Shown here one piece after another: positions 3,093 through 54,612 of a stretch of DNA of 64,000 nt. How positions within the stretch are numbered: position 1 is the stretch's first letter; every line of letters starts with the position of its first letter. Where the stretch lies: contig JAYEHH010000037.1 in NCBI GenBank assembly GCA_034716235.1, positions 566 to 64,565 of the forward strand, given 5' to 3'. Both the position numbers and the translations under genes were made by a program. The stretch is from Patescibacteria group bacterium (GTDB lineage: Bacteria; Patescibacteriota; Minisyncoccia; CAIUEV01; JAHKAQ01). The notes below the pieces were generated by a model. The model did no database searches and was not told where the DNA came from. It worked only from the letters and a program-made list of their open reading frames with translations.

Positions 3093-3272
3093 ATGGATAA
3101 TGGATAATTCACAATGCCACCCAAAGGCTGGTCACCCTCTGGGTGAGATAATGGAGAATTGATAATTTCCCTGTCATTCCCGCGAAAGCGGGAATCCCGG
3201 TACGTCTAGGCAAAACTTTGTCAAAATGATTTTCCTAAATTTGCTCGGGACCCTTGCTAGCACGGGGGTGGT
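3093..3272. repeat. Composite intergenic repeat, right arm flanking fusA, inverted relative to 764-962
   Basis: atggataatggataattcac (heptamers), ccaaaggctggtcaccctctgggtga (module B hairpin), ctgtcattcccgcgaaagcgggaatcccggtacgtctaggcaaaactttgtcaaaatgattttcctaaatttgctcgggaccc (module A). This is the reverse complement of the 764-880 element at roughly 85-90% identity. Confidence 0.75.
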
Positions 3273-3293
3273 ACATACATCAGGGGCGAAAAA

Positions 3294-3321
3294 TCTATAA
3301 TCTATAATCTATAATCTATAA
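3294..3321. repeat. Tandem heptamer TCTATAA x4 (each unit contains TATAAT)
   Basis: tctataatctataatctataatctataa immediately upstream of the HD-hydrolase gene. Confidence 0.6.
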
Positions 3322-3329
3322 TTTTCGAA

Positions 3330-3902
3330 GTGAATCCTTTTAAAATAATAAACAAATACTACAATGCTGATTCGGAGGAGTACCAAACATTGGTGCTTCA
3401 TTCAGTCATGGTAGCCAAAAAAGCATTAGAAATTGTTAGCCAACTAACAATCAGTCAATCTATTGCAGAAAATGTTTCCAGAGAATTTATTTATGAAGCT
3501 GCTATGTTGCATGACATTGGATTTAAATTTCCCGGAGAATTAAAAAACAAAACCGAGCTTGCCTCTCAATATCTCACCCATGGTTATTATGGTGCTGAAA
3601 TTTTAAGAAAAGAAGGACTTCCTCAGCATGCTCAAGTGGCTGAAAATCATGTTGGAGTAGGCTTAACTAGACAAGAAATTGAAAATAACAAATGGCCAAT
3701 GCCTCCAAAAGATTATTTTCCTCAAACAATTGAAGAAAAAATTATATCCTATGCGGATTTATTTTATTCAAAAAGTTATAAAACTTCGCCAGGTTTTTTT
3801 AAGGAAAGAACCATGGAAGAGGTTATTGAAAAGATAAAAAAATACCAAAATGGGAGTGAAAAAATCAAAGTTTTTCGAGAATGGGATAAGATTTTTACTT
3901 AA
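3330..3902 (+). CDS. HD-domain phosphohydrolase (YqeK-like size), inserted between fusA and tuf
   Basis: 190 aa with an H...HD signature (LHSVMVAKKA ... AAMLHDIGF) typical of the HD superfamily. Confidence 0.6.
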   Translation: MNPFKIINKYYNADSEEYQTLVLHSVMVAKKALEIVSQLTISQSIAENVSREFIYEAAMLHDIGFKFPGELKNKTELASQYLTHGYYGAEILRKEGLPQHAQVAENHVGVGLTRQEIENNKWPMPPKDYFPQTIEEKIISYADLFYSKSYKTSPGFFKERTMEEVIEKIKKYQNGSEKIKVFREWDKIFT

Positions 3903-4006
3903 TATTTAAGGATTACTTGACTTTAAGTTAAAATTCCGCTAATTATTAACTAATGTATTGCAACAATTACTAAATTATTAATAAGTCTAAGTTTAATAAA
4001 ATAATT

Positions 4007-4063
4007 AAGACCAATTGGGTAAAACTCAATTCTTGATGAAAGCAATTGGGATTGGTCTTTTGA
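4007..4063 (+). promoter_or_regulatory. tuf 5' leader hairpin (9-bp inverted repeat AAGACCAAT/ATTGGTCTT enclosing a duplicated CAATTGGG), followed by a T-run and the RBS
   Basis: aagaccaattgggtaaaactcaattcttgatgaaagcaattgggattggtcttttgaaaaggag; possible attenuator or terminator between the HD gene and tuf. Confidence 0.3.
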
Positions 4064-4079
4064 AAAGGAGTTTTTAAAA

Positions 4080-5273: not shown

Positions 5274-5284
5274 TGAAGTAGCTC

Positions 5285-5319
5285 AACAGAAAGAGGCGGA
5301 TTACCTGCCTCTTTCTGTT
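5285..5319 (+). terminator. Stem-loop after tuf (12-bp stem ACAGAAAGAGGC/GCCTCTTTCTGT); weak T tract
   Basis: aacagaaagaggcggattacctgcctctttctgttg sits 12 nt after the tuf stop; could be a terminator or an RNA-stability hairpin. Confidence 0.4.
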
Positions 5320-5347
5320 GTAAGCTTAATAGATCATTAATAAATAG

Positions 5348-5683
5348 ATGGAAAAGAAGAAAGAGCAAAAGTCAGAGGAAAAATCAAGGATTAGGATTAA
5401 AATTAAAGCTTTTGATCATCGAGTAATTGATCAATCGGCTAAACAGATTATGGATACCGCTGAAAGAACAGGGGCTAAGGTTATCGGACCAGTTCCTCTT
5501 CCTACAGCCATTAATCGTTTCACAGTGAATCGGTCCACCTTTGTCAACAAAGATGCTCGCGATCAATATGAAATGAGAACCCATAAGCGTTTGCTGGATA
5601 TTGAAAATTTTACCCCTAAAACGATTGATTCTTTGATTAACCTTGATTTACCAACAGGAGTAAACGTAGAGATTAAGATGTAG
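5348..5683 (+). CDS. rpsJ: 30S ribosomal protein S10 (with a short Lys/Glu-rich N-terminal extension)
   Basis: [39 protein letters not shown]... is the canonical S10 core. Confidence 0.95.
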
Positions 5684-5859
5684 TCCAGTGTGATTATTTG
5701 GCTGAGTGGTTAATTGTGGTTTAGACAATTTATTGAGCTTATAAATTGAATTTTTTCCATAGAGACGTAAAATTTTGCGTCTTTACAATTTTTTGAAGGT
5801 GCAAAAAAGCTCATTTTTCAAACATTCGAACATTTAGATTGAAGGAATAAATAAAGGTT

Positions 5860-6411: not shown

Positions 6412-6422
6412 TTATTTTTTTA

Positions 6423-7076: not shown

Positions 7077-7084
7077 TTTTTGTT

Positions 7085-7507: not shown

Positions 7508-7512
7508 CACTT

Positions 7513-10000: not shown

Positions 10001-10405
10001 ATGCTGTTACCAAAGAAAATTAAGCATCGGAAACAACACGAAAGGAAATTCAGACAGGTTACGAAAAGAGGAAGCACTTTAGAATTCGGAAATTTTGGTT
10101 TAAAAGTGCTGGAAGCTACTTGGATATCTTCAAGACAGTTGGAAGCTGCTAGACGAGCTATGACTCGTTATGTACAAAGACAAGGTAAGATTTGGATTAG
10201 GATTTTTCCCGATTCTCCAATTACTCAGAAGGGAGCAGAAGTTCCAATGGGTAAGGGCAAGGGTAGTGTAGACCATTTTGTGGCTGCAGTTAGTCCCGGA
10301 AGAATTATTTTTGAGATAGGTGGGATTGAGAAAGAGATAGCTGAGGTTGCCCTTAAAAGAGCTGGAGATAAAATATCAGCCAAGACTAAAGTTATTAGTA
10401 AATAA
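10001..10405 (+). CDS. rplP: 50S ribosomal protein L16
   Basis: MLLPKKIKHRKQHERKFRQ... canonical L16. Confidence 0.95.
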   Translation: MLLPKKIKHRKQHERKFRQVTKRGSTLEFGNFGLKVLEATWISSRQLEAARRAMTRYVQRQGKIWIRIFPDSPITQKGAEVPMGKGKGSVDHFVAAVSPGRIIFEIGGIEKEIAEVALKRAGDKISAKTKVISK

Positions 10406-10608: not shown

Positions 10609-11026
10609 GAAAACACCGTCAAAAAAATTGGTTAATGACTTGGAAACAAAACCGGTAAAAGCTGGTAAGACAAATCCTGTTTCTAAATCCAAGAAAGTTT
10701 TAGCTAAAAAAAAGACTAAAGCTAAATTGGAATACAAGCGGCCTAAATTGAAATTTGAAAGAATCAATACGGATCCATCAGAAAAGAAAGTTGAGATTAA
10801 GAAAAAAATTCAAGGTGTGGTTGTTTCAGATAAAATGGATAAAACGGTGGTAGTTTCTGTGGTTGGGATTAAGGTTCATTCTAAATACCACAAAAGGTAT
10901 AAAAGGAACAAGCGTTATAAAGTCCATGATCCAGAGAATAAATATAAGATTGGGGATGAAGTGGTATTTTCACCATCTAAGCCTTATAGTAAAGGGAAGA
11001 AGTGGGAGGTAGTAGAAAGTTCATAA
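10598..11026 (+). CDS. rpsQ: 30S ribosomal protein S17 (Lys-rich N-terminal extension)
   Basis: GVVVSDKMDKTVVVSVVGIKVHSKYHKRYKRNKRYKVHDPEN core. Confidence 0.9.
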   Translation: MISKKTPSKKLVNDLETKPVKAGKTNPVSKSKKVLAKKKTKAKLEYKRPKLKFERINTDPSEKKVEIKKKIQGVVVSDKMDKTVVVSVVGIKVHSKYHKRYKRNKRYKVHDPENKYKIGDEVVFSPSKPYSKGKKWEVVESS

Positions 11027-11044
11027 AGTTATAAAGTTATAAAG

Positions 11045-15062: not shown

Positions 15063-15150
15063 CCAGTATAAAGTAGAAAGTTCATAAAGTTGAAAGTAGG
15101 AACTTGATAACTTTACAAACTTTACAAACTTTTTACTTTACAAACTTGAC
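15063..15150. repeat. Tandem/palindromic array of AAAGTT/AACTTTACA units
   Basis: agtagaaagttcataaagttgaaagtaggaacttgataactttacaaactttacaaactttttactttacaaacttgacaacc; the same unit family occurs at 11023-11044, 17041-17060, 51047-51125, 52300-52365 and 54103-54125. Confidence 0.6.
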
Positions 15151-15158
15151 AACCTTCC

Positions 15159-16910: not shown

Positions 16911-17065
16911 AGGAAATTTTAAAGATTTGTTCTTATTTTATAATTTTAGCTTACTTTTCGTCAAAGGAAAACACAGAAAACTGTCTTTGTTTAATTTATT
17001 TTTTCGATTGTTTTAATAAGTGGAGGAGTAGGGTAGATACAGGTTTGTAAAGTTATAAAGTGACT

Positions 17066-17093
17066 TGTCATTCCCGCGAAAGCGGGAATCCCG
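17066..17093. repeat. Module A hairpin repeat core (GTCATTCCCGCGAAAGCGGGAATCCCGG), left flank of the GIY-YIG gene
   Basis: Exact 28-nt core shared with 3171-3200; cccgc-gaaa-gcggg hairpin. Confidence 0.8.
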
Positions 17094-17120: not shown

Positions 17121-17444
17121 ATGAATAAAAACTATTACGTTTATATTGTAACCAATAATAAGAATAGTACTTTCTATATAGGTATCACTAACAATTTAGA
17201 ACGACGTGTCTATGGACATAAACAAGGGATAGTTAAAGGATTTACTAAACAGTATAATCTCAATAAATTAGTATATTTTGAAGAAACAGGAAATGTTATA
17301 TCTGCAATCTCAAGAGAGAAATGTTTAAAAAAATGGAATAGAAAGTGGAAGGTAGAACTTATTGAGAAAGAGAATCCAAAATGGGAAGATTTAACAAACA
17401 AGTTTCTTCTAAAGCATATCGAGATTCCCGCTTCGCTTGTCTAA
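17121..17444 (+). CDS. Small GIY-YIG nuclease domain protein
   Basis: 107 aa; YYVYIVTNNKNSTFYIGITNNLERRVYGH is a textbook GIY-YIG motif; flanked by inverted copies of the module A repeat. Confidence 0.75.
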   Translation: MNKNYYVYIVTNNKNSTFYIGITNNLERRVYGHKQGIVKGFTKQYNLNKLVYFEETGNVISAISREKCLKKWNRKWKVELIEKENPKWEDLTNKFLLKHIEIPASLV

Positions 17445-17514
17445 TGACAGGCAGGTGCCAAGGATAACAAAAGAATAGATTTCTTAATTGAAAATTATTA
17501 TAATGTTTTTAAAA

Positions 17515-17548
17515 CGTACCGGGATTCCCGCTTTCGCGGGAATGACAG
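17515..17548. repeat. Module A repeat core, inverted copy, right flank of GIY-YIG; contains the ATG of the downstream gene
   Basis: cgtaccgggattcccgctttcgcgggaatgacag is the reverse complement of the 17066-17093 core; its terminal gaATGACAG supplies the start codon at 17542. Confidence 0.8.
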
Positions 17549-19812
17549 CAAATTTAACAACCTTCTTAACCTTCATAACTCTCACCCTCTTTTTCTTTCT
17601 CTTCCCTTTCTCCGTCAGAGCAACGGCGATTGATATTACGGAAAATACAACTTGGAATGAAGATCAAGTAGTGGAGGATAGGGTTATTGTCATGGGAGGA
17701 GCAACTTTAACCATTGAACCGGGAGTCCAAATTAAATTTAAGCCAGGAGGTAATTTAAGAATCTATGGAGATTTAATAGTGGAAGGAGAAAAGAATCAAC
17801 CGGTAATTTTCTTTAGAGAAAAACCTAAGCCAGAGGAAGAAAGGTGGATGTATTATTTAACCTTTGGAGCCGATTCTAATTCTGTCATCAAACATGCAAT
17901 CATTAAAGAGGCTGGTGGTTATTCTGACTCAGGCTCTCGAATGCCGGGAATGAAAATTAGGGGTAATTTAGAAATTTACGACAGTTTAATCACTCAAAAT
18001 TATTGGGCATTAGAAGTGAGAGACGATGGGCATTTAAAAATGAGAAATTCTGATATTTATGATAATCATACAACTTGGGGCGTAGAAGTATTGGGTCATT
18101 CTGCCGCCGCCGATATTGTTGATAATTATTGGGGAGATAATTCAGGCCCCTTTCATTCTTCTTTTAATAAATTGGCTACAGGAGAAAGAATCAATGGAGG
18201 CAATCTTGAATTTACACCCTGGGAAACAAGAGGTAAGAAGCCAATCATTCTAATCCCTGGATTTGGAGAATCTTTAAATTTCGGAAAGTTTTTTCAGAAT
18301 CAAGTAGGGAGATGGTGGCTTTTCCCGCCTACCAAATCAACCTCAGCCTTAAAAACTTTGCTAGAGGATGCTGGCTATGAAGATGAAGTAGATTTATTTG
18401 TTGGTTTTTATGACTGGCGGAAATCAATTCATCAAAATGCGACGGATTATTTAAAGCCAATTATAAATTTGGCTAAAGAAAAATCTGGTTTTAAAGAGGT
18501 GGACATTGTTGCTTTTAGTTTCGGTGGGCTTGTTTCCAGAAGCTATGTCCAAGGGAATTCTTTTGGGTTTGATGTAAATAATTTAATAACTTTAGGGACT
18601 CCCCATCAAGGAATTTCAAAAATTTACACTTTTGCAGCAGGCGGTCAGTTGCCAGCTGGCTGGAACCCCTTACTTTACATTTATCTCTGGTATGAACAAA
18701 TAGAGGAAGGTCAATCTGCCTTGGGTTATATCCAAAATTATTTACCATCCGTTTATGAGATAATGCCCACCTATGATTTCTTAAAAATGTCAGGGAGCTT
18801 GATTAATCATCAAGAAATGTCTATCACCAATAATATTTTGCAAGAGTTAAATAATGGAATTGGAGATTTACAAAATAGGGTAGATGCATTCTTTGTCGGA
18901 GGGACCGATCAACTAACCTTAGACAATATTCCAGTAAGACCACATCTACCAAACGATGGAGCATTTTGGCTGGACGGAGCTCCTGACCCAGCAAGACCAG
19001 TACCCAACAGTACTGAAGGAGATGCGACGGTCCTTACCAAAAGTGCTATTTGGGGAGTAGAAGATATTAAAAGCACTTTAATCCAGAGCCAGCATGAAGA
19101 TTTACCGTTAGAAGCAAAAACAGAAATTGAGAATATTTTAGACATTGATTTAGGAGAAACAAACTTTGATTTTAATTATTCGGAGGATTATCTTATTTTT
19201 TGCTTAGCTTCTCCTTTGGAAGTGGAAATCGTGGATCAGGCAGGGCATAGGCTTTCTCGGGAAATAAATGAAATTGAAAATGCTTATTTTTATGAAGAAG
19301 ATCCGTTGGGAAAAAAAATAATTTTAATTTATAATCCGGATACTGAATATTCAATGGAGGTTTCCGGGTTGGCGAACAGTGATTATAGAATTTTAGCAAT
19401 GTCAGCTGATGCTAATAGTGAAATAGTTTCTGCTGAAATTTCTGCAGAGATTGCTCTAGGAGAAAATGTTGAATATTGGGCAAGAAGAGTGGTGACTGAT
19501 ACCGAGGGAAATGAGCAGGGGGATGCGAATGAGTTAAAAATTGAAATTTATGAGAAAATCGTAGCTGACTATAAAGTGCTTGTTGGTCGAGTAAAAGATT
19601 TTTATAAAACTGGATTTTTGAAAAGTTGGGAGGTCAGACAGGAACTTTTAGAAAGAATACTGGCTAGCTATAATTTTTCAAAGAGAGATCAATTAGAAGA
19701 AGAGGGATTAATGATTGAAGATATAAAAGCAAAGGTTATTGAACTAGAAGTAAATGAGCTACTTGATTCCTCGAGTTCCCAATTGTTACTAGATGCCCTA
19801 GATGAGTTCTAA
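17542..19812 (+). CDS. Secreted protein: N-terminal signal peptide, right-handed parallel beta-helix repeats, LCAT/PGAP1-like alpha/beta-hydrolase (phospholipase/lipase) domain
   Basis: Signal peptide MTANLTTFLTFITLTLFFFLFPFSVRA; beta-helix-like repeats (NSDIYDNHTTWGVEV...); hallmark FYDWRKS and AFSFGG (A-x-S-x-G-G nucleophile elbow). Start reassigned from the TTG at 17488 to the ATG at 17542. Confidence 0.6.
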   Translation: MTANLTTFLTFITLTLFFFLFPFSVRATAIDITENTTWNEDQVVEDRVIVMGGATLTIEPGVQIKFKPGGNLRIYGDLIVEGEKNQPVIFFREKPKPEEERWMYYLTFGADSNSVIKHAIIKEAGGYSDSGSRMPGMKIRGNLEIYDSLITQNYWALEVRDDGHLKMRNSDIYDNHTTWGVEVLGHSAAADIVDNYWGDNSGPFHSSFNKLATGERINGGNLEFTPWETRGKKPIILIPGFGESLNFGKFFQNQVGRWWLFPPTKSTSALKTLLEDAGYEDEVDLFVGFYDWRKSIHQNATDYLKPIINLAKEKSGFKEVDIVAFSFGGLVSRSYVQGNSFGFDVNNLITLGTPHQGISKIYTFAAGGQLPAGWNPLLYIYLWYEQIEEGQSALGYIQNYLPSVYEIMPTYDFLKMSGSLINHQEMSITNNILQELNNGIGDLQNRVDAFFVGGTDQLTLDNIPVRPHLPNDGAFWLDGAPDPARPVPNSTEGDATVLTKSAIWGVEDIKSTLIQSQHEDLPLEAKTEIENILDIDLGETNFDFNYSEDYLIFCLASPLEVEIVDQAGHRLSREINEIENAYFYEEDPLGKKIILIYNPDTEYSMEVSGLANSDYRILAMSADANSEIVSAEISAEIALGENVEYWARRVVTDTEGNEQGDANELKIEIYEKIVADYKVLVGRVKDFYKTGFLKSWEVRQELLERILASYNFSKRDQLEEEGLMIEDIKAKVIELEVNELLDSSSSQLLLDALDEF

Positions 19813-19945: not shown

Positions 19946-20161
19946 ATGCAAAAACCATATTACGAAAAACCAAATTTTAAATTATATAAAACAGATAGTT
20001 TAGAGTTTCTAGCACAATTACCAGAAAATTCTATTGATATGATTTTTGCCGATCCTCCCTATTTTCTTTCAAGTGGAAGTTTCACCTGCCACAATGGAAA
20101 AATGGTAAATGTAAAAAAGGGAGATTTTATAATTTTTCGACAAAAGAAACCATGCAATTAA
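19946..20161 (+). pseudogene. N-terminal 71-aa fragment of a DpnA/beta-class N6-adenine (GATC) DNA methyltransferase; truncated, displaced by the downstream gene
   Basis: MQKPYYEKPNFKLYKTDSLEFLAQLPENSIDMIFADPPYFLSSG...VNVKKGDF matches the N-terminus and DPPY motif IV of DpnA-like MTases. The reading frame ends after 71 aa and overlaps the start of the next ORF. Confidence 0.65.
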
Positions 20162-20919
20162 TTTTGAATACAGATTTAGCTACTCAATACAAAAGTCAAT
20201 CTCAGAAAGTTAGAGTTTTGACTGAAAATTGGGTAAAAAATGAGATTTTTTGTCCGAATTGTGGGAATATTATTTCTAAATATCCAAACAATAAGCCAGT
20301 TGGAGATTTCTATTGTTCTGATTGTTTAGAAGATTATGAATTAAAAAGTAAAAAAGATTCAATTGGTAATAAAATTGTTGATGGAGCTTATAAAACAATG
20401 ATTGAAAGATTACAAAGCTCTACAAATCCAAATTTTTTCTTTTTAAACTATAATTTGCATACTTACGAAGTTGTAAATTTTGTTGTTATTCCAAAACATT
20501 TTTTTATTCCAGAAATAATTGAAAAAAGGAGACCCTTATCAGAGAATGCTCGTCGTGCTGGCTGGGTTGGTTGTAGTATTTTATTACAAAGTATTCCTGA
20601 AAGTGGAAAGATTTTCTACATTAAAAATCAACGAAAACAAAAAAAAGAAAAAGTTTTAAAAAATTGGCAAAAGACTTTATTTTTAAGACAACCTCAAGAA
20701 ATAGAATTAAAAGGCTGGATTTTAGATATTATGAAGTGCATTGATAAATTAGGGAAAAAGAAATTTTCGCTCGAAGAAATGTATTCATTTGAGAAAATCT
20801 TATCAGAAAAATATCCTGAGAATAATCATATTAAGGATAAAATAAGACAACAACTCCAGTTTTTAAGAGATGAAGGTTATTTAGATTTTTTATCTCGTGG
20901 TATTTATCGTTTAAAATAA
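20152..20919 (+). CDS. DpnI-like methylation-dependent (G-m6A-TC) type IIM restriction endonuclease: PD-(D/E)XK catalytic domain plus C-terminal winged helix
   Basis: 255 aa. From my memory of the S. pneumoniae DpnI sequence, the blocks match closely: YKSQSQKVRVLTENWV, FCPNCGN, DFYCSDC, ELKSKK, DGAYKTM, NPNFFFLNY, RRAGWVGC, GLFLR, NNHIKDKIRQQLQFLRD. Length is also the same. Confidence 0.75.
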   Translation: MQLILNTDLATQYKSQSQKVRVLTENWVKNEIFCPNCGNIISKYPNNKPVGDFYCSDCLEDYELKSKKDSIGNKIVDGAYKTMIERLQSSTNPNFFFLNYNLHTYEVVNFVVIPKHFFIPEIIEKRRPLSENARRAGWVGCSILLQSIPESGKIFYIKNQRKQKKEKVLKNWQKTLFLRQPQEIELKGWILDIMKCIDKLGKKKFSLEEMYSFEKILSEKYPENNHIKDKIRQQLQFLRDEGYLDFLSRGIYRLK

Positions 20920-23129: not shown

Positions 23130-23186
23130 GGGTATCTAGATAAATTTTAAATTTTCAAATAAAATCGTTTGTCTTTGTTGGATGGG

Positions 23187-23253
23187 TCATTCCCGCCTTT
23201 ACAGGAATGACATATCTGTCAGTGAATTATCTAACTTTTACAGGAATGACAGG
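23187..23253. repeat. Degenerate module A-like repeat pair (GTCATTCCCGCCTTTACAGGAATGACA ... TTTTACAGGAATGACAGG)
   Basis: Same GTCATTCC...GGAATGAC termini as module A with an altered loop. Confidence 0.55.
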
Positions 23254-34332: not shown

Positions 34333-34477
34333 AGTTTGTAAAGTTTAGGTAATGGATAATGGACGATGGAGAATTGACAATTGATAATGAATAATGCCAG
34401 CCTCTGGCTGGCGATTCCTTACCAAATTAGTTTCTCCTAAATTTGCTCGGGACCCCCGCCTACGCGGGGGTGACAAG
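34333..34477. repeat. Composite repeat (GGATAAT heptamers, module B-like AATGCCAGCCTCTGGCTGGC, module A half AAATTTGCTCGGGACCCCCGC...GCGGGGGTGAC)
   Basis: Same module order as 3093-3272. Confidence 0.65.
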
Positions 34478-34497: not shown

Positions 34498-35352
34498 ATG
34501 TCGTCTCCTAAAATTATTGATTCCCATGCTCATTTGAATTTTTCCGACTTTGATACAGATCGGGATGCTATTTTAGACGATACTTTAGATTCAGGAACAT
34601 GGGTCATAAATGTAGGATCTAATTTTGAAACCAGTAGAAAAGCGGTTGAAATCGCTCAACGGTATTCTCAAGGGGTTTATGCAGCGGTGGGGATTCATCC
34701 CATTCATGTTTTGGACGAAGGATCTAGTAGAGAGGCGATATTAGACTTGATCCAGAATAATGAAAATGTAGTAGCTATTGGAGAAATCGGGCTGGATTAT
34801 TTTCATCTAGAAAGCGAGAAAGGAAAATTAAAGGCGAATGAAGAAGATGCTCAATTTGTAGCAGTAGTCAAGAAAAAACAACAGACATTGCTTGCTCAAC
34901 AGCTGGAATTAGTAAGGGCTGTAAATTTACCGGTTATTTTTCATTGTCGCCATTATAAAAACTACGATGCTCATTATGATATGCTGAAAGTTATAGAGAA
35001 GTTTGCCACTTTGTATCAAAATTTTAAATTGCAAGGGGTGGTACATTGTTACACGGGCAATCTACAGTTAGCTGAAATTTATTTAAGGTTGGGGCTTTAT
35101 CTTGGCTTTACTGGAGTGATTACTTTTTCTGATGATTATAATGAGATTATCAAAAAAACTCCCCTAGAAAGAATCCTTATTGAAACTGATTCTCCCTATT
35201 TATCTCCTGAGCCAAAAAGAGGAAAAAGAAATGTACCCGAAAATGTTAAATATGTTGCTGAGAAAATTGCTAAAATAAAAGGGATTAAAGTCTCTGAAGT
35301 AAGGAGCCAAACAGTGAAAAATACAAAGGAACTGTTTGGGCTAGGTAATTGA
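34498..35352 (+). CDS. tatD: TatD-family metal-dependent DNase/hydrolase
   Basis: IIDSHAHLNFSDF N-terminal motif; 284 aa with an insertion. Confidence 0.88.
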   Translation: MSSPKIIDSHAHLNFSDFDTDRDAILDDTLDSGTWVINVGSNFETSRKAVEIAQRYSQGVYAAVGIHPIHVLDEGSSREAILDLIQNNENVVAIGEIGLDYFHLESEKGKLKANEEDAQFVAVVKKKQQTLLAQQLELVRAVNLPVIFHCRHYKNYDAHYDMLKVIEKFATLYQNFKLQGVVHCYTGNLQLAEIYLRLGLYLGFTGVITFSDDYNEIIKKTPLERILIETDSPYLSPEPKRGKRNVPENVKYVAEKIAKIKGIKVSEVRSQTVKNTKELFGLGN

Positions 35353-35745
35353 CAATGGACAATTGACAATGGAGAATGCCAGCCAGAGGGTGACAATCTT
35401 TTTCCCACTGTCATTCCCGTCCCGTCATCCCAGCATTCGCGGGACAGGTCCGACGGGATAAATTCCAGCCCGCCTAAGCTCGCTAACTAATGTACCCATT
35501 ACAGTTTTGTGACACGGCGAGGCAAGCGGGAATCCCGAGCAAATTTAGGAAAGGCTAACACAACTTGTCATTCCCGCCTGCGCGGGAATGACAAATAAAA
35601 TTGTGAAGCGGGGGTGACAGTGGAGAAGCATTCCATAATTGTAAATTGCCAGCCAAAGGCTCGCATGGACACGGCGAGACTGGCTGGTTTGTCTCGCCGA
35701 AGGCTGGTCACCCTCTGGGTGAAAAATTATTTTCCCTTGTCCCCA
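35349..35745. repeat. Large composite repeat block (heptamers, module B, module C CCCGTC..CGCGGGACAGG..GACGGG, module D, module A, module B) upstream of tRNA-Leu; inverted partner at 44827-44990
   Basis: 35399-35545 is ~92% identical to the reverse complement of 44827-44986, including the unique segment gctaactaatgtacccattacagttttgtgacacggcgaggcaagcggg. Confidence 0.75.
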
Positions 35746-35819
35746 TACTTAAGAAATGATACGTTTATTGATAGAAAGCATGCTAATGGTCAGAGGTTAA
35801 TAGTTAGTAGTTGCGAAGC

Positions 35820-35903
35820 GCCGCGGTGGCGGAACTGGTAGACGCGCCAGCTTTAGGAGCTGGTGAGATTTATCTTGTGGGAGTTCAAATCTCCCCCGCG
35901 GCA
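35820..35903 (+). tRNA. tRNA-Leu (anticodon TAG), class II with long variable arm
   Basis: Acceptor GCCGCGG/CCGCGGC, D-arm GCGGAACTGGTAGACGC, anticodon stem CCAGC/GCTGG with loop TTTAGGA (TAG), variable arm TGAGATTTATCTTGT, T-arm GGGAG-TTCAAAT-CTCCC, discriminator A; CCA not encoded. Confidence 0.8.
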
Positions 35904-35907
35904 CCCT

Positions 35908-38900
35908 ATGTCTATTTTCAAAACTCACTATAAAAAACTAAATACTGGTCAGAAAAAAGCCGTTGACTCTCTTGAGGGACCAGTAATGGTAGCCGCTGGT
36001 CCTGGAACCGGTAAAACGGAAGTTTTAGCTTTGCGAATTGTTAATCTTATTCGGCAGAAAAAAGCCAACCCAGAAGAAATTTTAGCGCTTACTTTTAGTA
36101 ATAGCGCTACGGTTTCTATGCGGAGGAGAGTAACGAAATTTTTAGGAGCTCAAGCTTATAATATTGGTATTAAAACTTTCCATAGTTTTTGTAATGATGT
36201 TATTAGTCAATATCCGGACAAATTTGTACTTCTTAAAGAATTGAGCCAGTTAAATGAATTGGAATCAATAAAAATTATTAAAACTATTTTACGCAGAGGA
36301 AAATTTAAACAGTTGAAACCTTTTTACAGCCCCTACTGCCACCAAAAAGAAATTATTAGTACCATAAGTCAGCTTAAACAGGAAGGGGTTTCACCAAAAG
36401 AATTGGAGAGTGCTCTAGAAACAATGGCTCAAGATTTAGAGGACACTAAAAAGATTAATCCTAGAACAGGCAAGCCTACCGGTAAATGGCAAACTCAATA
36501 CAAGCAATGGGAAAAATTAAATGATTTGTTAAAAATTTATCAAGAATATTTAGAGAAAACTCATCGGGAGGGTTGGTATGATTTTAGCGATATGATTACC
36601 TGGGTGACGGAGAAATTAAAAGAAGACCAGGAATTAAGAAATTATTATCGTGATCAGTTCAAATATATTTTGAGTGACGAATATCAGGATACGAATATCC
36701 CCCAAAGTGAAGTTATTGAAATTTTAGGCAAACCTCAAAAAAATCCTAATATTTTTATAGTAGGAGATGATGACCAGTCAATTTATCGTTTTCAAGGGGC
36801 TAGCCTGGATAATATTATTTCTTTTGAGAAAAAATATCCGACAGCCAAAATTATTCCTCTTAATATCAATTACCGTTCTCAACAAAAAGTGGTATCTCTC
36901 TCCAAGACTTTGATTGAAAAAAATGAAGAGAGGTTAGTGAATGTTACTCAGCAGGCTATTGATAAAAATATTCAATCATTTGCCGAGAAAGAGCAAGGGG
37001 GTCAAGTTTCGCTAGCCGAATTTTCCGAATCAGCGGTGGAAGATTATTTTATTGCTCAAAAAATTAAAGAATTGCATAAAAAGGGGATTCCTTTTAAGGA
37101 GATGGCTATTATTAACAGAACTAATCAAGATGTTTCTCAAATAGCCGATTATCTTATTAAGGCGGGTATCCCGGTAGAAATGTCTAGCACCGGCTCTATT
37201 CTTGATAAAAAAGAAACTAAGGAGATTATGAGCCTGTTAGCGGTAGCCGTTACTCCCCATAGTAACGCTATTATTTATGAGGCTATGAGTTTGGAGGTTT
37301 GGGAAATTGAACCGCGAGATTTTCTAGAATTTACCTATCAAGCCGGTAAAGAGAAAATTAACTACTTTGATTTTTTCAACCGATTAGAAAGTGAGTCAGA
37401 GAAAAAATCACTAGAAAATACAACTAAATGGCAAGACTTTAAAAAGATTAAATTTTTCTTTGAGACGGTTGCTCGTTGGCATCAGGAAAGTGTATCTACG
37501 CCGGCGATTTTAATGTTAGAAAAAGTTATCAATGATTCGGGGCTCATTAAAAGTTGTCTAGAAAAAAAAGATATTAGAAAACTTAATCGAATATTCTCGC
37601 TATTTTCTTTTGTGAAAGAAAATAATCGTAAGAATCCTTTTTTAAAGTTAAAGAGCGTAATAAATGATTTAGAAATAATGCGGGAAGACAGATTAACCAT
37701 TAAAGAAAAGGAGCTTTCTATGGCAGAGGATGATGTGCGAGTTATCACAGCTCACGCCGCTAAAGGTTTAGAATTTGAAGTAGTCTTTATTCCTCGGCTG
37801 TATCAAGGTAACTGGGACGGAAAAAGAAAAAACCAAGTTATCAAAATTCCTTGGAATCTTTTAACTAGACTCAAAAGAGAAGAAAACGAATCGGCAAAAA
37901 GTGATGATGAAAGAAGACTGTTTTTTGTAGCTCTTACCCGGGCTAAAAGTCAGCTATTTTTAAGCCGAGCCGATCGTTACGATTATTTGAATAGTTCTGG
38001 GGAGAAAACTCCTTCTAGGTTTCTAGCAGAAATTGACAGCCAGTTAGTAAAAAAGTGTTCTCCTGAAAAATACGAGGATGCGACCTTAGCAAGAATGAAA
38101 ATTGAACTTAAAAAAACACCAATTGTCAAAAAGGGGAATCGGTTAAAACAGGAAACCAGTTTCTTGCGTCAAAGAGTGGAGGACTTAGCTCTGAGTCCTA
38201 CCAGTTTAAACCTTTATCTAAATTGTCCTCGTCGGTATAAATACGAGAAATTATTGATGATTCCTAGCGCTAAAAATAAAGCGGCTTCTTTGGGAACGGC
38301 TATTCATGAGGCACTAGAGAAGTTTTTTCAAGATTTCCAAAAAGATAAAAAGGTCAATCAGGCTTCTTTGATTTCCTTTTTTAGAGAGGCTGTAGCAAAG
38401 GAAGTTTTGGCTAAAAGTGATTTGGAAGATATGCTTAGGGAGGGAGAAAGACTCTTGAATGATTATTATGCAGAATACAGTCAAGATTTTGTAAAACCGG
38501 TAGAGCTAGAAATGAGTTTCGGTAAGGTTTATTTATCGGGGGCATCAGCAACCAACAAGAAAAATGAGAAGGCGGTTTTATTGACCGGTAAAATAGATAA
38601 AATTGAAAAAATTAGCCAACAGGAAAAAACTGAAAAAGGCAAAATTCCGGTCAAAGTTATTGATTACAAAACAGGAATGCCTCAAACTAAAAATCAGATT
38701 TTAGGTAATACAAAAAACTCATCTGGAGATGTTTACCGACAAATGGTTTTCTATAAGCTACTCTCTCTTTTAGATAAAAAATTTCCTTATTCAGTGACAG
38801 AAGTTGAAGTTGATTTTATTAAATCTCAAAATGGACGCTTCAGAAGAGAAAGTTTTGAAATAACTAAAGAAGAAACAGATAAATTACAAAAACAAATTAA

Positions 38901-39006
38901 CGAAGTAGTCAGAAAAATAAAAAATTTAGAATTTGGACCAACTAAAGATACCAGGAATTGCCAGCGTTGCGATTTGAAGGATCTTTGTTCCTTGGTTGAA
39001 GAATAG
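35908..39006 (+). CDS. UvrD/PcrA-family SF1 helicase fused to a C-terminal Fe-S-cluster RecB/Cas4-like PD-(D/E)XK nuclease
   Basis: Walker A AAGPGTGKT, helicase motifs (DEYQDTN, QSIYRFQGA, VITAHAAKGLEFEVVF). C-terminal GKIDKIEKI...VIDYKTG...YRQMVFYKLL (D...D/ExK...QxxxY) plus four Cys (CPRRYKY...CQRCDLKDLC). Start moved to the ATG at 35908 because the upstream GTG lies inside the tRNA. Confidence 0.8.
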   Translation: MSIFKTHYKKLNTGQKKAVDSLEGPVMVAAGPGTGKTEVLALRIVNLIRQKKANPEEILALTFSNSATVSMRRRVTKFLGAQAYNIGIKTFHSFCNDVISQYPDKFVLLKELSQLNELESIKIIKTILRRGKFKQLKPFYSPYCHQKEIISTISQLKQEGVSPKELESALETMAQDLEDTKKINPRTGKPTGKWQTQYKQWEKLNDLLKIYQEYLEKTHREGWYDFSDMITWVTEKLKEDQELRNYYRDQFKYILSDEYQDTNIPQSEVIEILGKPQKNPNIFIVGDDDQSIYRFQGASLDNIISFEKKYPTAKIIPLNINYRSQQKVVSLSKTLIEKNEERLVNVTQQAIDKNIQSFAEKEQGGQVSLAEFSESAVEDYFIAQKIKELHKKGIPFKEMAIINRTNQDVSQIADYLIKAGIPVEMSSTGSILDKKETKEIMSLLAVAVTPHSNAIIYEAMSLEVWEIEPRDFLEFTYQAGKEKINYFDFFNRLESESEKKSLENTTKWQDFKKIKFFFETVARWHQESVSTPAILMLEKVINDSGLIKSCLEKKDIRKLNRIFSLFSFVKENNRKNPFLKLKSVINDLEIMREDRLTIKEKELSMAEDDVRVITAHAAKGLEFEVVFIPRLYQGNWDGKRKNQVIKIPWNLLTRLKREENESAKSDDERRLFFVALTRAKSQLFLSRADRYDYLNSSGEKTPSRFLAEIDSQLVKKCSPEKYEDATLARMKIELKKTPIVKKGNRLKQETSFLRQRVEDLALSPTSLNLYLNCPRRYKYEKLLMIPSAKNKAASLGTAIHEALEKFFQDFQKDKKVNQASLISFFREAVAKEVLAKSDLEDMLREGERLLNDYYAEYSQDFVKPVELEMSFGKVYLSGASATNKKNEKAVLLTGKIDKIEKISQQEKTEKGKIPVKVIDYKTGMPQTKNQILGNTKNSSGDVYRQMVFYKLLSLLDKKFPYSVTEVEVDFIKSQNGRFRRESFEITKEETDKLQKQINEVVRKIKNLEFGPTKDTRNCQRCDLKDLCSLVEE

Positions 39007-39087
39007 ATTTGTCTAAATTTGCTCGGGATTGTCATCCAAGGGGTGACCAGCCCGGCACATTTAAGAAATGTTTAATTTTGTTTGGTT

Positions 39088-44456: not shown

Positions 44457-44600
44457 TTGATGGACAATGGATAATGGATGAATATCTTTTTCTAATTTTC
44501 AATTTTATTTGTCATTCCTGTAAAAGTTAGGTAATTCGTTGACAGATATGTCATTCCCGCGTAGGCGGGAATCCAGAAACTAGAATAAAATTTCTGAGAC
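44457..44600. repeat. Composite repeat (GGATAAT/GGACAAT heptamers plus module A variants GTCATTCCTGTAAAAG... and GTCATTCCCGCGTAGGCGGGAATCCAGAAACTAGAATAAAAT)
   Basis: Near-identical to 54125-54180 (gtcattcccgcgaaggcgggaatccagaaactagaataaaatta). Confidence 0.65.
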
Positions 44601-44739
44601 TAAATACAAATTAACAATTACTAGAAAGCTGACCTGTATCATTTTCTAAGTTTCATATAGCTTTACTAGAAGAAATAAGTATTATTTAAAAGTTATTTTA
44701 CTGTTACAGTAAAATAAGTGCAGTATGTTTTAGAAATCT

Positions 44740-44990
44740 GGATTCCTGCCTTCCTGCCTCACCTACCTCACGGTAGGCAGGCGGTAGGCAGGCACGGGGA
44801 ATGACAAATAAGAAAGTATTGTCTAAAACGTCTCGGGACCCCCGCTTGCCTCGCCGTGCCACAAAATTGTAATGGGTACATTAGTTAGCGAGTTTAGGCG
44901 GGCTGGAGTTTATCCCGTCGGACCTGTCCCGCGAATGCTGGGGTGACGGGGCGGGAATGACAGGGGAAAAAGCTAGTTGGCTTTGATCTT
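44740..44990. repeat. Large composite repeat block, inverted partner of 35399-35545; includes CACCTACCT-type microsatellite
   Basis: cctcacctacctcacggtaggcaggcggtaggcagg ... then the reverse complement of modules A/D/C as at 35399-35545. Its end overlaps the 3' end of rpmE. Confidence 0.75.
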
Positions 44991-50453: not shown

Positions 50454-50462
50454 ATTATTTTT

Positions 50463-51050
50463 ATGCAACGAATTCCTATCGAAATTTCAGCACGGCACTT
50501 ACACCTATCGCGAGCTGATACAGATATTATTTTTGGGAAAGGCTACCAATTACATGTTTTTAAAAAATTATCGCAACCAGGATCTTTTTCTACTCAAGAA
50601 ACTGTTAAAATAATTTACAAGGGAAAATCTGGGGAAAAAAGTTTAGAGAAAGTTAGAATCATTGCTCCTCTAAGAGATCATTCTCAGCTGGAGCTTGCTG
50701 GAACAGATGCTCGACGGTTAGGAGCTAAGCCTCCTATTCGTCTTAGTGGGAATATTGAGGGTACCCCTGGGTTTGAAATTGTAGGGCCAGCAGGAGCAGT
50801 GGCTAAAGAAGAAGGGATGATAATTGCCAAAAGACATTTACATGTTTCTCCTAAAGAAGCGGAGGAGTTATCCCTTAAAAACGGAAATGAAATTAAGGTT
50901 AAAGCTGGTGGAGATGGAGAACGAGAGCTTATTTTTTGCAAAGTGGTTGTGAGGGTGGCAGAAAATTTCAAATTAGCCATGCATATTGATACCGATGAAA
51001 GTAACGCCGTTGGTATGACAAGTTGTGGATATGGGGAAATAACTTTATAA
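50463..51050 (+). CDS. pduL: PduL-type phosphate acyltransferase (phosphotransacetylase/propanoyltransferase)
   Basis: Duplicated PduL motifs ISARHLHLSRAD...IFG and IAKRHLHVSPKEAEEL; the acetate kinase gene follows immediately. Confidence 0.75.
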   Translation: MQRIPIEISARHLHLSRADTDIIFGKGYQLHVFKKLSQPGSFSTQETVKIIYKGKSGEKSLEKVRIIAPLRDHSQLELAGTDARRLGAKPPIRLSGNIEGTPGFEIVGPAGAVAKEEGMIIAKRHLHVSPKEAEELSLKNGNEIKVKAGGDGERELIFCKVVVRVAENFKLAMHIDTDESNAVGMTSCGYGEITL

Positions 51051-51125
51051 CCTTATAACTTTACAACTTTACAAACTTTACAAACTTTATAAACTTTACA
51101 AATTTTATAACTTTATGAACTTTCT
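51047..51125. repeat. Tandem nonamer array CTTTACAAA (about 8 units, degenerate)
   Basis: ccttataactttacaactttacaaactttacaaactttataaactttacaaattttataactttatgaactttc between pduL and ackA. Confidence 0.7.
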
Positions 51126-52181: not shown

Positions 52182-52185
52182 AGGA

Positions 52186-52365
52186 ATTTTTTACACAGAG
52201 GGTGATCCGCCTCTGGATAATGGATAATGGATAATGGACAATTGATGATTCCACCTAGAGGGTGACCAGTCTCTGGCTGGTTGCTTAATGACAAGTTCGT
52301 AAAGATGGGACAATTCATAATTTCTTAATCACTTTATGAACTTTATGAACTTTATGAACTTTCTA
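52186..52365. repeat. Composite repeat (module B AGAGGGTGATCCGCCTCTGG, GGATAAT heptamers, module B AGAGGGTGACCAGTCTCTGGCTGG, tandem CTTTATGAA x3)
   Basis: cacagagggtgatccgcctctggataatggataatggataatggacaattgatgattccacctagagggtgaccagtctctggctggttgc...ctttatgaactttatgaactttatgaactttc. Confidence 0.65.
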
Positions 52366-52384
52366 CTTTTAAATTACATTGCTT

Positions 52385-54103
52385 ATGAAAAAATGGATTT
52401 TACGGTCTCAACCGGGAGACAAATACAGAAAAAAGTTTTCTAATTATTCTAAATTTGTTCAAACCATTTTTTACCAGATAGGTATTAAGACTGACAAGGA
52501 GGCGGAAGATTTTTTTGGTTTAGACTATGAAAATGGATTGCATGATCCCCAGCTACTTTCGGGAATGGAGAAAGGAGCTGAAAGGATTTTAAAGGCTATT
52601 AAAAATAACGAGCAGATTGCTATTTACGGTGACTATGACGCTGACGGAGTAACAGCGACTGCCGTTTTGAGTCAATTCTTTAAAGAATTGAAAATTGAGC
52701 CAGTTGTTTATATCCCTGAACGAGTTAATGAAGGTTATGGTTTGAATGGAAAAGCGATTGATTATCTTAAGGACAAAAAAGTTAAATTAGTTATTACCGT
52801 AGATACTGGCATTAGAAATGTTGAAGAAGCTCAACTTTTTAAAGAAGAAGGAATTGATTTAATTATTACCGACCATCATTCATTGCCAGAAAAGCTTCCC
52901 GAGGCAGTTGCCGTTATTAATCCTCATCAAGATAAAGGGAAATATCCTTTTGAAGATTTAGCGGGAGTGGGAGTGGCTTTCAAATTGGTCCAATTTTTGA
53001 TTGGTAAAATAGGCGAGAATAAATTTTCGGCTGGTTTTGAAAAATGGCTTTTAGATTTAGTAGCCTTGGGGACAATAGCCGACATGGTCCCTCTCAAAGG
53101 AGAGAATAGAATTTTAGCTAAATATGGTCTTATTGTTTTAAGCAAAACTAAGAGATTTGGATTAAGGTCATTAATGAGCAATACTAGAATTTCTCTTAAC
53201 GACGAACAGCCAATTACTTCAGAAACGGTAGCTTTTCAAATAGCTCCCAGAATAAATGCGGCCGGTAGAATGGACCACGCTAATAATGCCTTGGTCCTCC
53301 TAAATGCAGAGAATAACACCGAAGCTAAGAAATTAGCCGACCAATTAGAAGATCAAAATAAAGCGCGTAGGAACATTACCAGTAAAATTCTTAGAGAAAC
53401 AGAAAAAATGGACTTTGGTGATAAAAAGATTATTATTGTCGGTAAAGATAGCTGGCCACTTGGCGTGATAGGATTGGCGGCGGGCAAACTTTGTGATAAA
53501 TTTAATCGTCCCGTTTTAGTTTATGGCAAGGACGGAAATCAAGTGCGTGGTTCCGCCAGAAGTATAGTTGGTTTCAATATTATAAAAGCATTGGATGAAT
53601 TGGATGATTTATTGGTGGCTCATGGAGGGCATAAACAGGCAGCCGGGTTTACTGTTCCCAGAGAGAAGTTGTCAGAATTTAAAGAAAGGTTAGAAAAGAT
53701 TGCAGAACAGGAAATACAAACAAAAGACTTGATGGCTAAACAAAAGATTAATTATAGGATTAACTTTAATGAGATAGGGAAGGATTTAGAGGAGGAGTTA
53801 AAAGCTTTTGAGCCTTATGGAGTTGGCAATCAAGAACCAGTTTTTTTAATTAAAGATGCTCAAGTTTGCCAAGCAAAATTTGTTGGTAAAACACAAAAAC
53901 ATTTAAAACTATTGGTTTGCGAGGGAAAAAAGAAAGCAGGTTTAATAAAGTATATTGGTTGTATTGGGTTTAATTTTGAAAATTACACCGGCAAAATAAA
54001 GCCGGGAGATTTGATAGACATTGTGTTTAATTTAAGTGTTAATAATTTTAATGGCAAAGCAGCATTAGAATTTAAAATGATAGACCTGAGAGTGAAAAGT
54101 TAA
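52385..54103 (+). CDS. recJ: Single-stranded-DNA-specific exonuclease RecJ
   Basis: DHH family motifs: DYDADGVTATAVL, VDTGIRN, ITDHHS; DHHA1 C-terminal region GGHKQAAGF. Confidence 0.9.
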   Translation: MKKWILRSQPGDKYRKKFSNYSKFVQTIFYQIGIKTDKEAEDFFGLDYENGLHDPQLLSGMEKGAERILKAIKNNEQIAIYGDYDADGVTATAVLSQFFKELKIEPVVYIPERVNEGYGLNGKAIDYLKDKKVKLVITVDTGIRNVEEAQLFKEEGIDLIITDHHSLPEKLPEAVAVINPHQDKGKYPFEDLAGVGVAFKLVQFLIGKIGENKFSAGFEKWLLDLVALGTIADMVPLKGENRILAKYGLIVLSKTKRFGLRSLMSNTRISLNDEQPITSETVAFQIAPRINAAGRMDHANNALVLLNAENNTEAKKLADQLEDQNKARRNITSKILRETEKMDFGDKKIIIVGKDSWPLGVIGLAAGKLCDKFNRPVLVYGKDGNQVRGSARSIVGFNIIKALDELDDLLVAHGGHKQAAGFTVPREKLSEFKERLEKIAEQEIQTKDLMAKQKINYRINFNEIGKDLEEELKAFEPYGVGNQEPVFLIKDAQVCQAKFVGKTQKHLKLLVCEGKKKAGLIKYIGCIGFNFENYTGKIKPGDLIDIVFNLSVNNFNGKAALEFKMIDLRVKS

Positions 54104-54612
54104 AAGTTTATAAAGTTAGAAAGTTAAACTATTAAAGTCATTCCCGCGAAGGCGGGAATCCAGAAACTAGAATAAAATTATCATTGATAAATAATGGATG
54201 GTGATTATCAAAAACACTAGCCTACATAAATTTACTAGAAGAAATAAATATTGTTAAGAATTGGCTTATTGTTATAATGAAATAAAATTGGTGCATTCTA
54301 AATTTCTAGATTCCCGTCCGGCATCCCAGCATCCGCGGGACAGGTTCGCCGGATTGCACTTCCCTACCTCACCTACCTCACCTACCTCACGGCAGACAAG
54401 TGGCAGACAAGTGGCAGACAGGCGCGGGGAATGACAGGGGAAAAAGGCTGACTGGCTTGTCTCGCCGAAGGCTCGCCTAAACTCGGTGAGGCTAGAGGAG
54501 ATCCCGAGCAAATTTAGAAAAAAACTAATTTGGCAAGGCTCTGCCTAGACGTACCGGGATTCCCGCTTTCGCGGGAATGACAGGAATGCAACTTTACAAA
54601 CTTTTAACTATT
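54103..54612. repeat. Composite repeat block (AAAGTT units, module A, module C, CACCTACCT x3 and GGCAGACAAGT x3 microsatellites, module A)
   Basis: gtcattcccgcgaaggcgggaatccagaaactagaataaaatta; cccgtccggcatcccagcatccgcgggacaggttcgccgg; cctcacctacctcacctacctcacggcagacaagtggcagacaagtggcagaca; ...gtctagacgtaccgggattcccgctttcgcgggaatgacagg (near-identical to 828-866). Confidence 0.7.

Follow-up and report, generated by a model that had tools for sequence, protein, structure and literature searches.

An Ssn nuclease homologue and its hairpin repeats in intergenic mosaics of a Patescibacteria genome

A 64-kb stretch of a Patescibacteria genome (contig JAYEHH010000037.1 of GenBank assembly GCA_034716235.1, positions 566 to 64,565; hereafter, the window, whose own numbering is used) was analyzed for GC-rich palindromic repeats and AT-rich arrays. 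The window has a GC content of ~35% and nearly all of its genes are on the plus strand; the repeat results refer to this stretch. The genome, a member of the candidate phyla radiation (CPR), in all likelihood (a probability of roughly 0.8) carries an Ssn system, in which the main palindrome of the repeats is the Ssn-related motif (SRM) and the open reading frame (ORF) 17121-17444 encodes its cognate enzyme. The reading is based on the identity and enrichment of the motif, covariation in its hairpin, homology of the enzyme, linkage of gene and motif in six CPR loci, and the mosaic architecture of the repeats. A first-pass annotation made from the sequence had divided the repeats into Modules A, B, and C, microsatellites, and AT-rich arrays; all of these were found where it had placed them or a few bases away.

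The SRM hairpin and the ssn gene

Judged by its sequence, Module A is a 28-nt SRM, the same hairpin as the NTS/dRS3 of Neisseria, and not an orphan repetitive extragenic palindromic (REP) element. In Neisseria, dRS3 (ATTCCC-N8-GGGAAT) is part of the 28-nt oriented NTS hairpin (consensus CGTCATTCCCGCGMAVGCGGGAATCYRG), the generalised form of which is the SRM (PMC11893778). SsnA, a GIY-YIG protein of 94 aa, binds the NTS and cuts a few bases upstream, in single-stranded DNA only; cleavage depends on the three bases 5' of the palindrome and binding on the C immediately 3' of it, and ssnA genes are typically flanked by the motif (PMC11893778).

The SRM of the window is an oriented DNA hairpin composed of GTC, an 8-bp stem (ATTCCCGC/GCGGGAAT) with a 4-nt loop, and then C. 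The published SRM pattern matched nine times, against a mean of 0.09 and a maximum of 2 in 100 dinucleotide shuffles, and the dRS3 pattern eight times (0.01 expected). Seven of the nine SRMs were within two mismatches of the Neisseria NTS consensus, one of them within one. Hairpin conservation with compensatory changes, suggested as a check in the first-pass annotation, was found when 42 distinct 28-nt SRM sequences, taken from the window and from the fetched loci, were compared: 98.5% of the stem cells were paired, and compensatory changes were present at three of the eight pairs (31 cells), which was reached by 0 of 500 shuffles. Two window SRMs (763, 34448) carried the double compensated change TT>CC / AA>GG. 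Positions G2, T3, C4, and C25 were invariant among the 42 28-mers, and these (GTC and C25) are the positions governing cleavage and binding in PMC11893778. With a covariance model, nine copies scored 41-49 bits and one 27.6 bits, versus 10-12 bits on the opposite strand; thus, the copies are oriented. Their 3' flanks fall into three sub-families.

The motif is widespread. The exact 28-mer GTCATTCCCGCGAAAGCGGGAATCCCGG, searched with one genome per species, was found at 51 loci across many phyla, with hosts in Alphaproteobacteria, Gemmatimonadota, Ignavibacteria, Terriglobia, Planctomycetes, Zixibacteria, Omnitrophota, and Dehalococcoidia, as well as a Taylorbacteria (CPR) genome. At most of these loci, the 28-mer was the left-hand member of an inverted doublet, and the spacer measured 12-45 nt. 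When the 51 SRM-bearing loci of other phyla were searched with Ssn by tblastn, no adjacent ssn was found; the SRMs there are dispersed copies. The 25-nt SRM core was also present in 95 stretches of viral or proviral contigs (IMG/VR, loci L146-L225).

The cognate gene had been overlooked in the first-pass annotation. The ssn gene (17121-17444, plus strand) encodes a 107-aa single-domain GIY-YIG nuclease (only Pfam match PF01541, E = 1e-16), which is, from its sequence, the predicted cognate enzyme of the SRMs. It is bracketed by two outward-facing SRMs, as in the published NTS-ssnA-NTS layout. The left border (17066-17093, plus) matched the SRM pattern, scored 49 bits with the covariance model, and has its 5' GTC end outward. 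The right border (17520-17547, minus) lies within the N-terminal region of a lipase-like ORF and holds ATG 17542; in frame, this SRM reads GIPAFAGMT, and the ATG precedes a signal-peptide-like sequence, which agrees with the earlier claim that a repeat supplies the start codon of the lipase gene. The 3' end of ssn overlaps a decayed SRM (17421-17450), and in the closest relatives, the C-terminal tail of Ssn is an SRM read in frame (GIPAFAGMT).

Published Ssn homologues were defined by tblastn at E < 1e-10 (PMC11893778). The window Ssn gave a single tblastn match (E = 5e-22) in each of two N. gonorrhoeae chromosomes, which are filed among plasmids. The gonococcal ORF has 94 aa, carries Y6, Y17, and E64 as published for SsnA, and is located among NTS copies. 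In a pairwise comparison, the window Ssn was 48% identical to this SsnA orthologue, ungapped over 85 aa (E = 5e-32), and Y8, Y19, and E66 aligned to the catalytic Y6, Y17, and E64. The three residues were invariant in 13 homologues, and homologues from many phyla were ~60% identical. The window Ssn was 100% identical to an NCBI protein from a Patescibacteria metagenome-assembled genome (MAG). NCBIfam returned only a sub-threshold match to a group I intron endonuclease family, and PADLOC had no model matching Ssn. In a PDB sequence search, WD40 repeat matches were rejected as spurious and UPF0213 matches were weak.

In five other Patescibacteria ssn loci (L052, L138, L142, L143, and L144), SRMs directly adjoin the gene, and ssn was the only repeat-bracketed gene seen across the six CPR loci, the window included. 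Relatives were also sampled via a metagenome scan with EF-G, which yielded 639 kb of fusA loci at 59-69% identity (at most 69%). These loci had three SRMs, versus nine strict copies in the 64-kb window, and the spacer between S7 and fusA was ~15-20 bp in two of them (L059, L062), versus 237 bp in the window. The SRM expansion in the window is lineage-specific, unusually dense, and layered. In L144, two small GIY-YIG genes were present 8 kb apart (10001-10297 and 18537-18821), and the first was flanked by SRMs and by a different hairpin, CTGGATTCCCAATCAAGTTGGGAATGACAC; the pair hints at paired enzyme/motif variants.

Repeat mosaics and AT-rich arrays

Repeated DNA, as determined by self-BLAST of the window and repeat finding, amounted to 2,142 bp in 33 segments spanning 736-54610. 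Each segment was intergenic or overlapped gene ends by a few bases, and of the 36 intergenic regions that exceed 40 bp, approximately 15 contained repeats. Self-BLAST also revealed an unrelated repeat pair (58400/61491).

The doublet at 763-865 comprises an SRM variant (763-790, plus; TT>CC / AA>GG), a 47-nt spacer, and an SRM (838-865, minus); it is REPIN-like, and its predicted DNA fold is a single long hairpin (-30.3 kcal/mol, z = -5.5). An inverted copy at 3172-3270, with an intact SRM (3172-3199, plus), the spacer, and a decayed SRM (3246-3270, minus), pairs with 742-866 (I2/I7), and fusA is bracketed by the resulting ~220-bp inverted repeat, made of doublet and arrays. The 103-bp doublet is built from two SRM sub-families and has partial copies at 34419-34475 and 54495-54582. 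The first of these contains an SRM variant (34448-34475, minus; stem ACCCCCGC/GCGGGGGT) next to half of the doublet spacer (34419-34447; I5). The second contains the doublet spacer (54495-54554; D6) before the SRM that forms the right border of the 54-kb composite (54555-54582, minus). A further spacer fragment with a Module B-like piece (39006-39055, plus; D20) stands directly after the addA-like gene. Two more degenerate or symmetrical copies were found: a decayed SRM-like palindrome (23186-23211) with a half-site (23236-23253), which matched the covariance model weakly and has an inverted copy at 44510-44572 (I4), and the perfectly palindromic SRM-like hairpin GTCATTCCCGCCTGCGCGGGAATGAC at 35567-35592, which has the dRS3 pattern and the score of 27.6 bits.

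The composites 44503-44972 and 54104-54616, the two largest, are paralogues; each has an SRM on the plus strand, a shared AT-rich stretch, and an SRM-like hairpin whose loop is greatly expanded. Their left borders are the SRMs 44549-44576 (plus; shared 3' flank AAACTAGAATAAAATT) and 54136-54163 (plus; one mismatch from the Neisseria NTS consensus). The long-loop hairpin at 44738-44806 (minus; -18 kcal/mol, z = -4.4) has a loop of self-complementary CCTGCC/CCTACC...GGTAGGCAGG repeats. Its paralogue at 54306-54448 (minus; alignment A2 and Tandem Repeats Finder, TRF) holds the microsatellites 54363-54420, namely (CCTACCTCA)x3.1 at 54363-54390 and (GGCAGACAAGT)x2.7 at 54391-54420 (TRF). The microsatellites, taken as separate elements in the first-pass annotation, are thus expansions in the loop of SRM-like hairpins.

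Module C has three copies, at 35422-35456 (plus), 54318-54352 (plus), and 44915-44949 (minus). The first is contained in a 149-nt composite repeat (35400-35548, plus) and the last in its inverted copy (44823-44971, minus; I1, 91% complementary; I12). Module C also lies in the loop of another SRM-like stem (35410-35460). The copy at 54318-54352 is nested in the long-loop hairpin and is absent from that position of the 44-kb paralogue, so Module C is a separate unit.

Module B (3117-3146, plus; D5, D19) consists of two adjacent hairpins, CCAGCC..GGCTGG and TCACCC..GGGTGA, with 6-bp stems and 3-nt loops; further copies were at 34396-34412, 35378-35394, 35697-35722, 52196-52216, and 52251-52280. 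It usually adjoins heptamer arrays, and T/A-rich tails follow its hairpins. Copies 86-88% identical were present in two other Patescibacteria genomes (L052, L138). Module B, long-loop SRMs, and tandem arrays of half-sites, (GCGGGAATGACAGTGAAAAA)n, recur in the P0003 and/or P0004 genomes (L138-L141, L052-L057). The 20-nt unit GCGGGAATGACAGTGAAAAA combines the SRM's 5' half with the flank on its 5' side; ~10 tandem copies stand downstream of ssn in L139 (400-670) and L141 (830-1100), and a two-unit version is found in the window at 866-891. The strain variants L052 and L053 differ by one 41-bp indel adjoining SRM half-sites. Besides the SRMs, Modules B and C and the microsatellites act as accompanying hairpins, of which some are nested in SRM loops, and the whole forms mosaics like the neisserial intergenic mosaic elements (NIMEs) or the bacterial interspersed mosaic elements (BIMEs).

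An AT-rich promoter-like module (54222-54311, plus) has the best sigma-70-type match of the region (54251-54278; TTGTTA-16-TATAAT with an upstream TG). Its degenerate paralogue is at ~44655-44745 (alignment A2). The module at 54222-54311 is 88% identical over 91 nt to positions 807-897 of L138; this locus belongs to a different Patescibacteria MAG, in which Ssn is only 71% identical. Conservation of these 91 nt despite 71% Ssn identity suggests a mobile or strongly constrained promoter cassette, as far as the sequence can indicate.

The AT-rich arrays belong to two main families, heptamers and 8-9-mers. AAAGTT-N2-3-AAAGT occurred 18 times (0.76 expected), as did AATKGANAATKGA (0.16 expected). 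Heptamer arrays were located at 902-961 (AATKGAN on the minus strand, abutting the fusA ATG; TRF), at 3092-3108 and 3144-3165 (plus, beginning at the fusA stop codon and flanking Module B), at 34350-34396 (plus, after the metG stop codon), at 35347-35378 (plus, overlapping the tatD stop codon and containing a TTGACA-17-GAGAAT promoter-like match at 35349-35377), at 44460-44479 (plus), and at 52214-52246 (plus, between two Module B copies). The array at 44460-44479 is just upstream of the true prfA start, ATG 44451 on the minus strand. The ORF beginning at TTG-44502 crosses this array, and the RF1-like start is ATG 44451; the N-terminal extension of prfA is spurious, as had been proposed.

The 8-9-mer family includes the array AAAGTTNNN at 11016-11044 (plus), which spans the rpsQ stop codon, ends at the rplN ATG, and is found with SRM absent. 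At 15065-15156, an inverted pair of 9-mer arrays, (AAAGTT..)n followed by (AACTTT..)n, stands without a GC-rich core and folds as a DNA hairpin (-13.1 kcal/mol, z = -3.1); it could be the "empty" counterpart of the filled sites. The array at 17040-17061 (plus) is 5' of the left SRM of the ssn unit, with an inverted counterpart at 17559-17579. Approximately ten units of AACTTTACA (51039-51123, minus) end at the ackA ATG. The array at 52323-52362 (minus), upstream of recJ, adjoins an SRM remnant (52285-52304). The array at 54091-54128 (plus) overlaps the recJ stop codon 5' of the SRM at 54136, and its inverted counterpart (54586-54604) is 5' of the SRM at 54555 (minus). A perfect (AATCTAT)x4.4 array at 3292-3322, upstream of an HD-domain gene, has a unit unlike both main families.

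Arrays that follow stop codons read AATGGAT or AAAGTTATA on the coding strand, and those that precede start codons read the reverse complement, so that the arrays form inverted pairs around an intergenic core. At least seven of the nine SRMs had an array on the outer 5' side, the predicted cleavage side, on the same strand; none had one on the 3' side. The junction AAAGTGACTTGTCA is present at 17055 and again, in inverted form, at 34472, with a similar flank in L052, which suggests that the 8-9-mer arrays grew from the flank of the element itself. Neither 7-mer nor 8-9-mer arrays were seen in the related loci examined; the arrays therefore appear lineage-specific.

The AATTGAC/AATGGAT orientation always points into the GC-rich composite, and the heptamers give -35/-10-like hexamers with a 17-nt spacer; the total of promoter-like matches was not above shuffled expectation. 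Gene leaders were AT-rich, and several consisted wholly of tandem arrays. GGAG, GAGG, or AGGA was present within 20 nt upstream of the start in 4 of 52 genes, and the 3' end of the 16S rRNA keeps CCUCC. The arrays had also been considered as a replacement for the Shine-Dalgarno site; this was dropped, such a site being present in so few genes anyway.

Mechanism, alternatives, and known systems

In the proposed mechanism, the SRM strand would fold into its hairpin when DNA becomes single-stranded during uptake and transformation, replication, or repair. Ssn would bind the hairpin stem and the 3' C and nick a few nucleotides 5' of GTC, and the cutting of SRM-bearing single-stranded DNA would change the material available for recombination. 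Single-strand cleavage by the window Ssn, like its biological role, is proposed by analogy with SsnA. Natural competence, by way of ComEC and pili, has been reported for Patescibacteria (PMC12455944), which offers a plausible context for a trimming of incoming single-stranded DNA as in Neisseria. The SRMs would have multiplied mostly as inverted doublets and larger units with outward-facing SRM borders. These units would then have gained Modules B and C, long-loop variants with microsatellites, half-site repeats, and the promoter-like module to give NIME-like mosaics. The AT-rich arrays are the outermost layer and were most likely produced by local tandem duplication of the element's flank.

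The closest known system is that of N. meningitidis (Nat Commun 2025, PMC11893778). Both have a nearly identical 28-nt oriented hairpin, strongly over-represented, and a single-domain GIY-YIG protein (48% identical, same catalytic residues) whose gene is bracketed by the repeats, and the host is of the symbiont type, as are most SRM-rich genomes in that paper. The window differs in its host, a CPR bacterium with ~35% GC (Patescibacteria are not mentioned in the main text of PMC11893778), in the 13-aa C-terminal tail of Ssn, partly encoded by the decayed SRM, and in having its repeats set within AT-rich tandem arrays and further hairpin modules that PMC11893778 does not describe; activity of the window enzyme would follow from homology. 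NIMEs, composed of dRS3 and RS repeats, resemble the window composites in the recurrence of the dRS3 pattern and in having copies that bracket other repeated segments in variable intergenic mosaics. No sequence relationship to the RS elements of Neisseria is known for the intervening segments (doublet spacer, Module B, Module C, promoter-like module), and the arrays are new.

Several points weigh against the Ssn interpretation. The whole basis is 64 kb of the source genome, and the dispersal of copies is read within this window. From sequence, Modules B and C and the AT-rich arrays would be tied to Ssn by co-location alone. The SRMs around the window ssn (plus upstream, minus downstream) are reversed in orientation relative to the gonococcal locus. 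In L142-L144, SRMs are present beside ssn only, so ssn by itself does not produce the expansion. For the same repeats in Neisseria, a RAYT (REP-associated tyrosine transposase) has also been held responsible.

The first alternative is a role at the RNA level: the hairpins would be stabilisers of transcript ends, terminators, or small RNA (sRNA) genes, the arrays would be promoters or leaders, and the nuclease link would be incidental. It is unlikely as the explanation, and it is compatible with the Ssn interpretation. Every copy is intergenic, T/A-rich tails follow the Module B hairpins, and both the heptamer arrays and 54222-54311 give near-consensus sigma-70-type matches. Two SRMs also gave weak Rfam matches to FtrB of Francisella tularensis (RF02748), which is a genuine transcript of 115 nt with the same hairpin in it, GTCATTCCCGCGTAGGCGGGAATC. 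These matches scored 31.4 and 30.9 bits against a gathering threshold of 66 bits, and only the hairpin is shared, so the window SRMs are not FtrB genes; a permissive Rfam scan of the composites gave nothing above threshold. The SRMs have no T-tracts and occur in either orientation with respect to transcription, the hairpin in its RNA form is not bound by N. meningitidis SsnA (PMC11893778), and the promoter-like matches did not exceed their shuffled expectation in total. Conservation of the oriented flanks, GTC and C, extends across phyla, which would be expected of protein recognition of DNA and not of a terminator. A role in RNA alone is not sufficient to account for the SRMs.

A bolder version of the Ssn interpretation, speculative and quite unlikely in our estimate, is that the units with outward-facing SRMs are cassettes mobilised or remodelled by Ssn itself, as a novel type of single-strand DNA mobile element. 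The AT-rich and half-site arrays would then be scars of nicking and slipped re-synthesis, 15065-15156 would be an emptied site, and the cassettes would spread promoters (54222-54311 and the heptamer arrays) in a streamlined genome with almost no Shine-Dalgarno use. The IS200/IS605 "peel and paste" elements offer a parallel, with sub-terminal hairpins that are recognised single-stranded and cut a few bases outside, leaving no target-site duplications; for the window, such cleavage would hold by analogy. Enzyme fold and chemistry differ, and the cleavable strands of the window border hairpins lie on opposite strands, so excision of one strand in the IS200/IS605 manner is not obviously possible. 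In a blastn comparison, the ssn unit and the large composites were similar at their SRM ends only and no ssn remnants were present in the composites, which are thus not visibly derived from ssn by deletion.

The mosaics also resemble the REP/BIME and REPIN-RAYT systems of Proteobacteria, in which short GC-rich extragenic palindromes form inverted doublets with long hairpins, gather in mosaic clusters where operons end, and also flank their own partner gene. SRM doublets copied by a Y1 transposase encoded elsewhere, with Ssn as a passenger or secondary user, would be an improbable source of the repeats. The doublet 763-865 does have REPIN architecture, with its single long hairpin, the same 21-mer (ATTCCCGCGCAGGCGGGAATC) in Neisseria has been regarded as a REPIN population that a Group 2 RAYT maintains, and the search for a transposase covered the 64-kb window, a small share of the genome. 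As the first-pass annotation had reported, no RAYT/Y1 transposase or insertion sequence (IS) was found among the ~44 window ORFs scanned with Pfam. The partner gene in the window is a GIY-YIG nuclease and not an IS200-like Y1 transposase, and ssn is the sole gene bracketed by repeats in the six CPR loci. RAYT-type REPs have a conserved GTAG on the 5' side, where GTCA stands in the SRM.

Classical miniature inverted-repeat transposable elements (MITEs), that is, deletion derivatives of a DDE-type IS with terminal inverted repeats moved in trans, are very improbable: inverted SRMs do bound the composites and contigs of related genomes do break at the SRM repeats, but no target-site duplications of at least 4 bp were found at seven composite borders, no transposase remnants were found in the composites, the ssn unit and the composites share SRM ends only, and the ends exactly match a motif with a known, different partner protein. 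Of the earlier comparison to REP/BIME or MITE, the part concerning dispersed hairpin repeats in REP/BIME- or NIME-like mosaics stood, and the MITE part was not supported, no target-site duplications of at least 4 bp having been found at the composite borders.

CRISPR, integron attC, and terminator-only readings and an assembly artefact were rejected on the basis of the architecture, the lack of T-tracts, and the recurrence of the same modules in independent assemblies. How the SRM copies of the Ssn system spread can be proposed only indirectly, given that neither target-site duplications nor transposase or ssn remnants were found.

Neighbouring genes and significance

Other features of the window were recorded alongside the repeats. 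The 16S rRNA gene (58832-61309) is split: its Rfam match ends at 60309, the 3' part (CCGTCACACC...AAGTCGTAACAAGGTATCC...GGATCACCTCCTTTCT) is at 61180-61309, and a LAGLIDADG endonuclease ORF (60648-61109) is contained in the insertion of ~900 nt. The processing stem may be formed by a 34-nt inverted repeat (58407-58440 / 61491-61524). A methyl-directed type II restriction enzyme resembling DpnI is encoded at 20152-20919 (Pfam DpnI, DpnI_C; PADLOC mREase_II, E = 1e-121), and no adjacent methyltransferase was noted. Genes acting on DNA ends or single strands are bracketed by repeats at 34498-39006 and 52379-55033 (TatD DNase, an AddA-like UvrD helicase with a PD-(D/E)XK nuclease domain, RecJ, and RNase H); given the many repeat-bearing intergenic regions, this may be coincidence.

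The Ssn/SRM system in Patescibacteria is new for that phylum, the system itself having been first described in 2025; no report of such repeats in Patescibacteria was found in the searchable literature. The relationship of arrays to SRMs and the portable promoter-like module could be new parts. The repeats generate spurious coding sequence, namely the GIPAFAGMT peptide and false N-terminal extensions, and the specificity of the candidate nuclease may be useful for single-stranded DNA tools. Even a genome that is streamlined and AT-rich can carry repeat mosaics in ~40% of its longer intergenic regions. With one ssn, hairpins both intact and decayed, and sites that may be "empty" or "filled", the window would be convenient for asking how such repeats spread, a question that persists for the Neisseria dRS3/NTS after two decades. 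The host range of the Ssn/hairpin-repeat system would extend to the CPR, organisms thought to live by uptake of host or environmental DNA.

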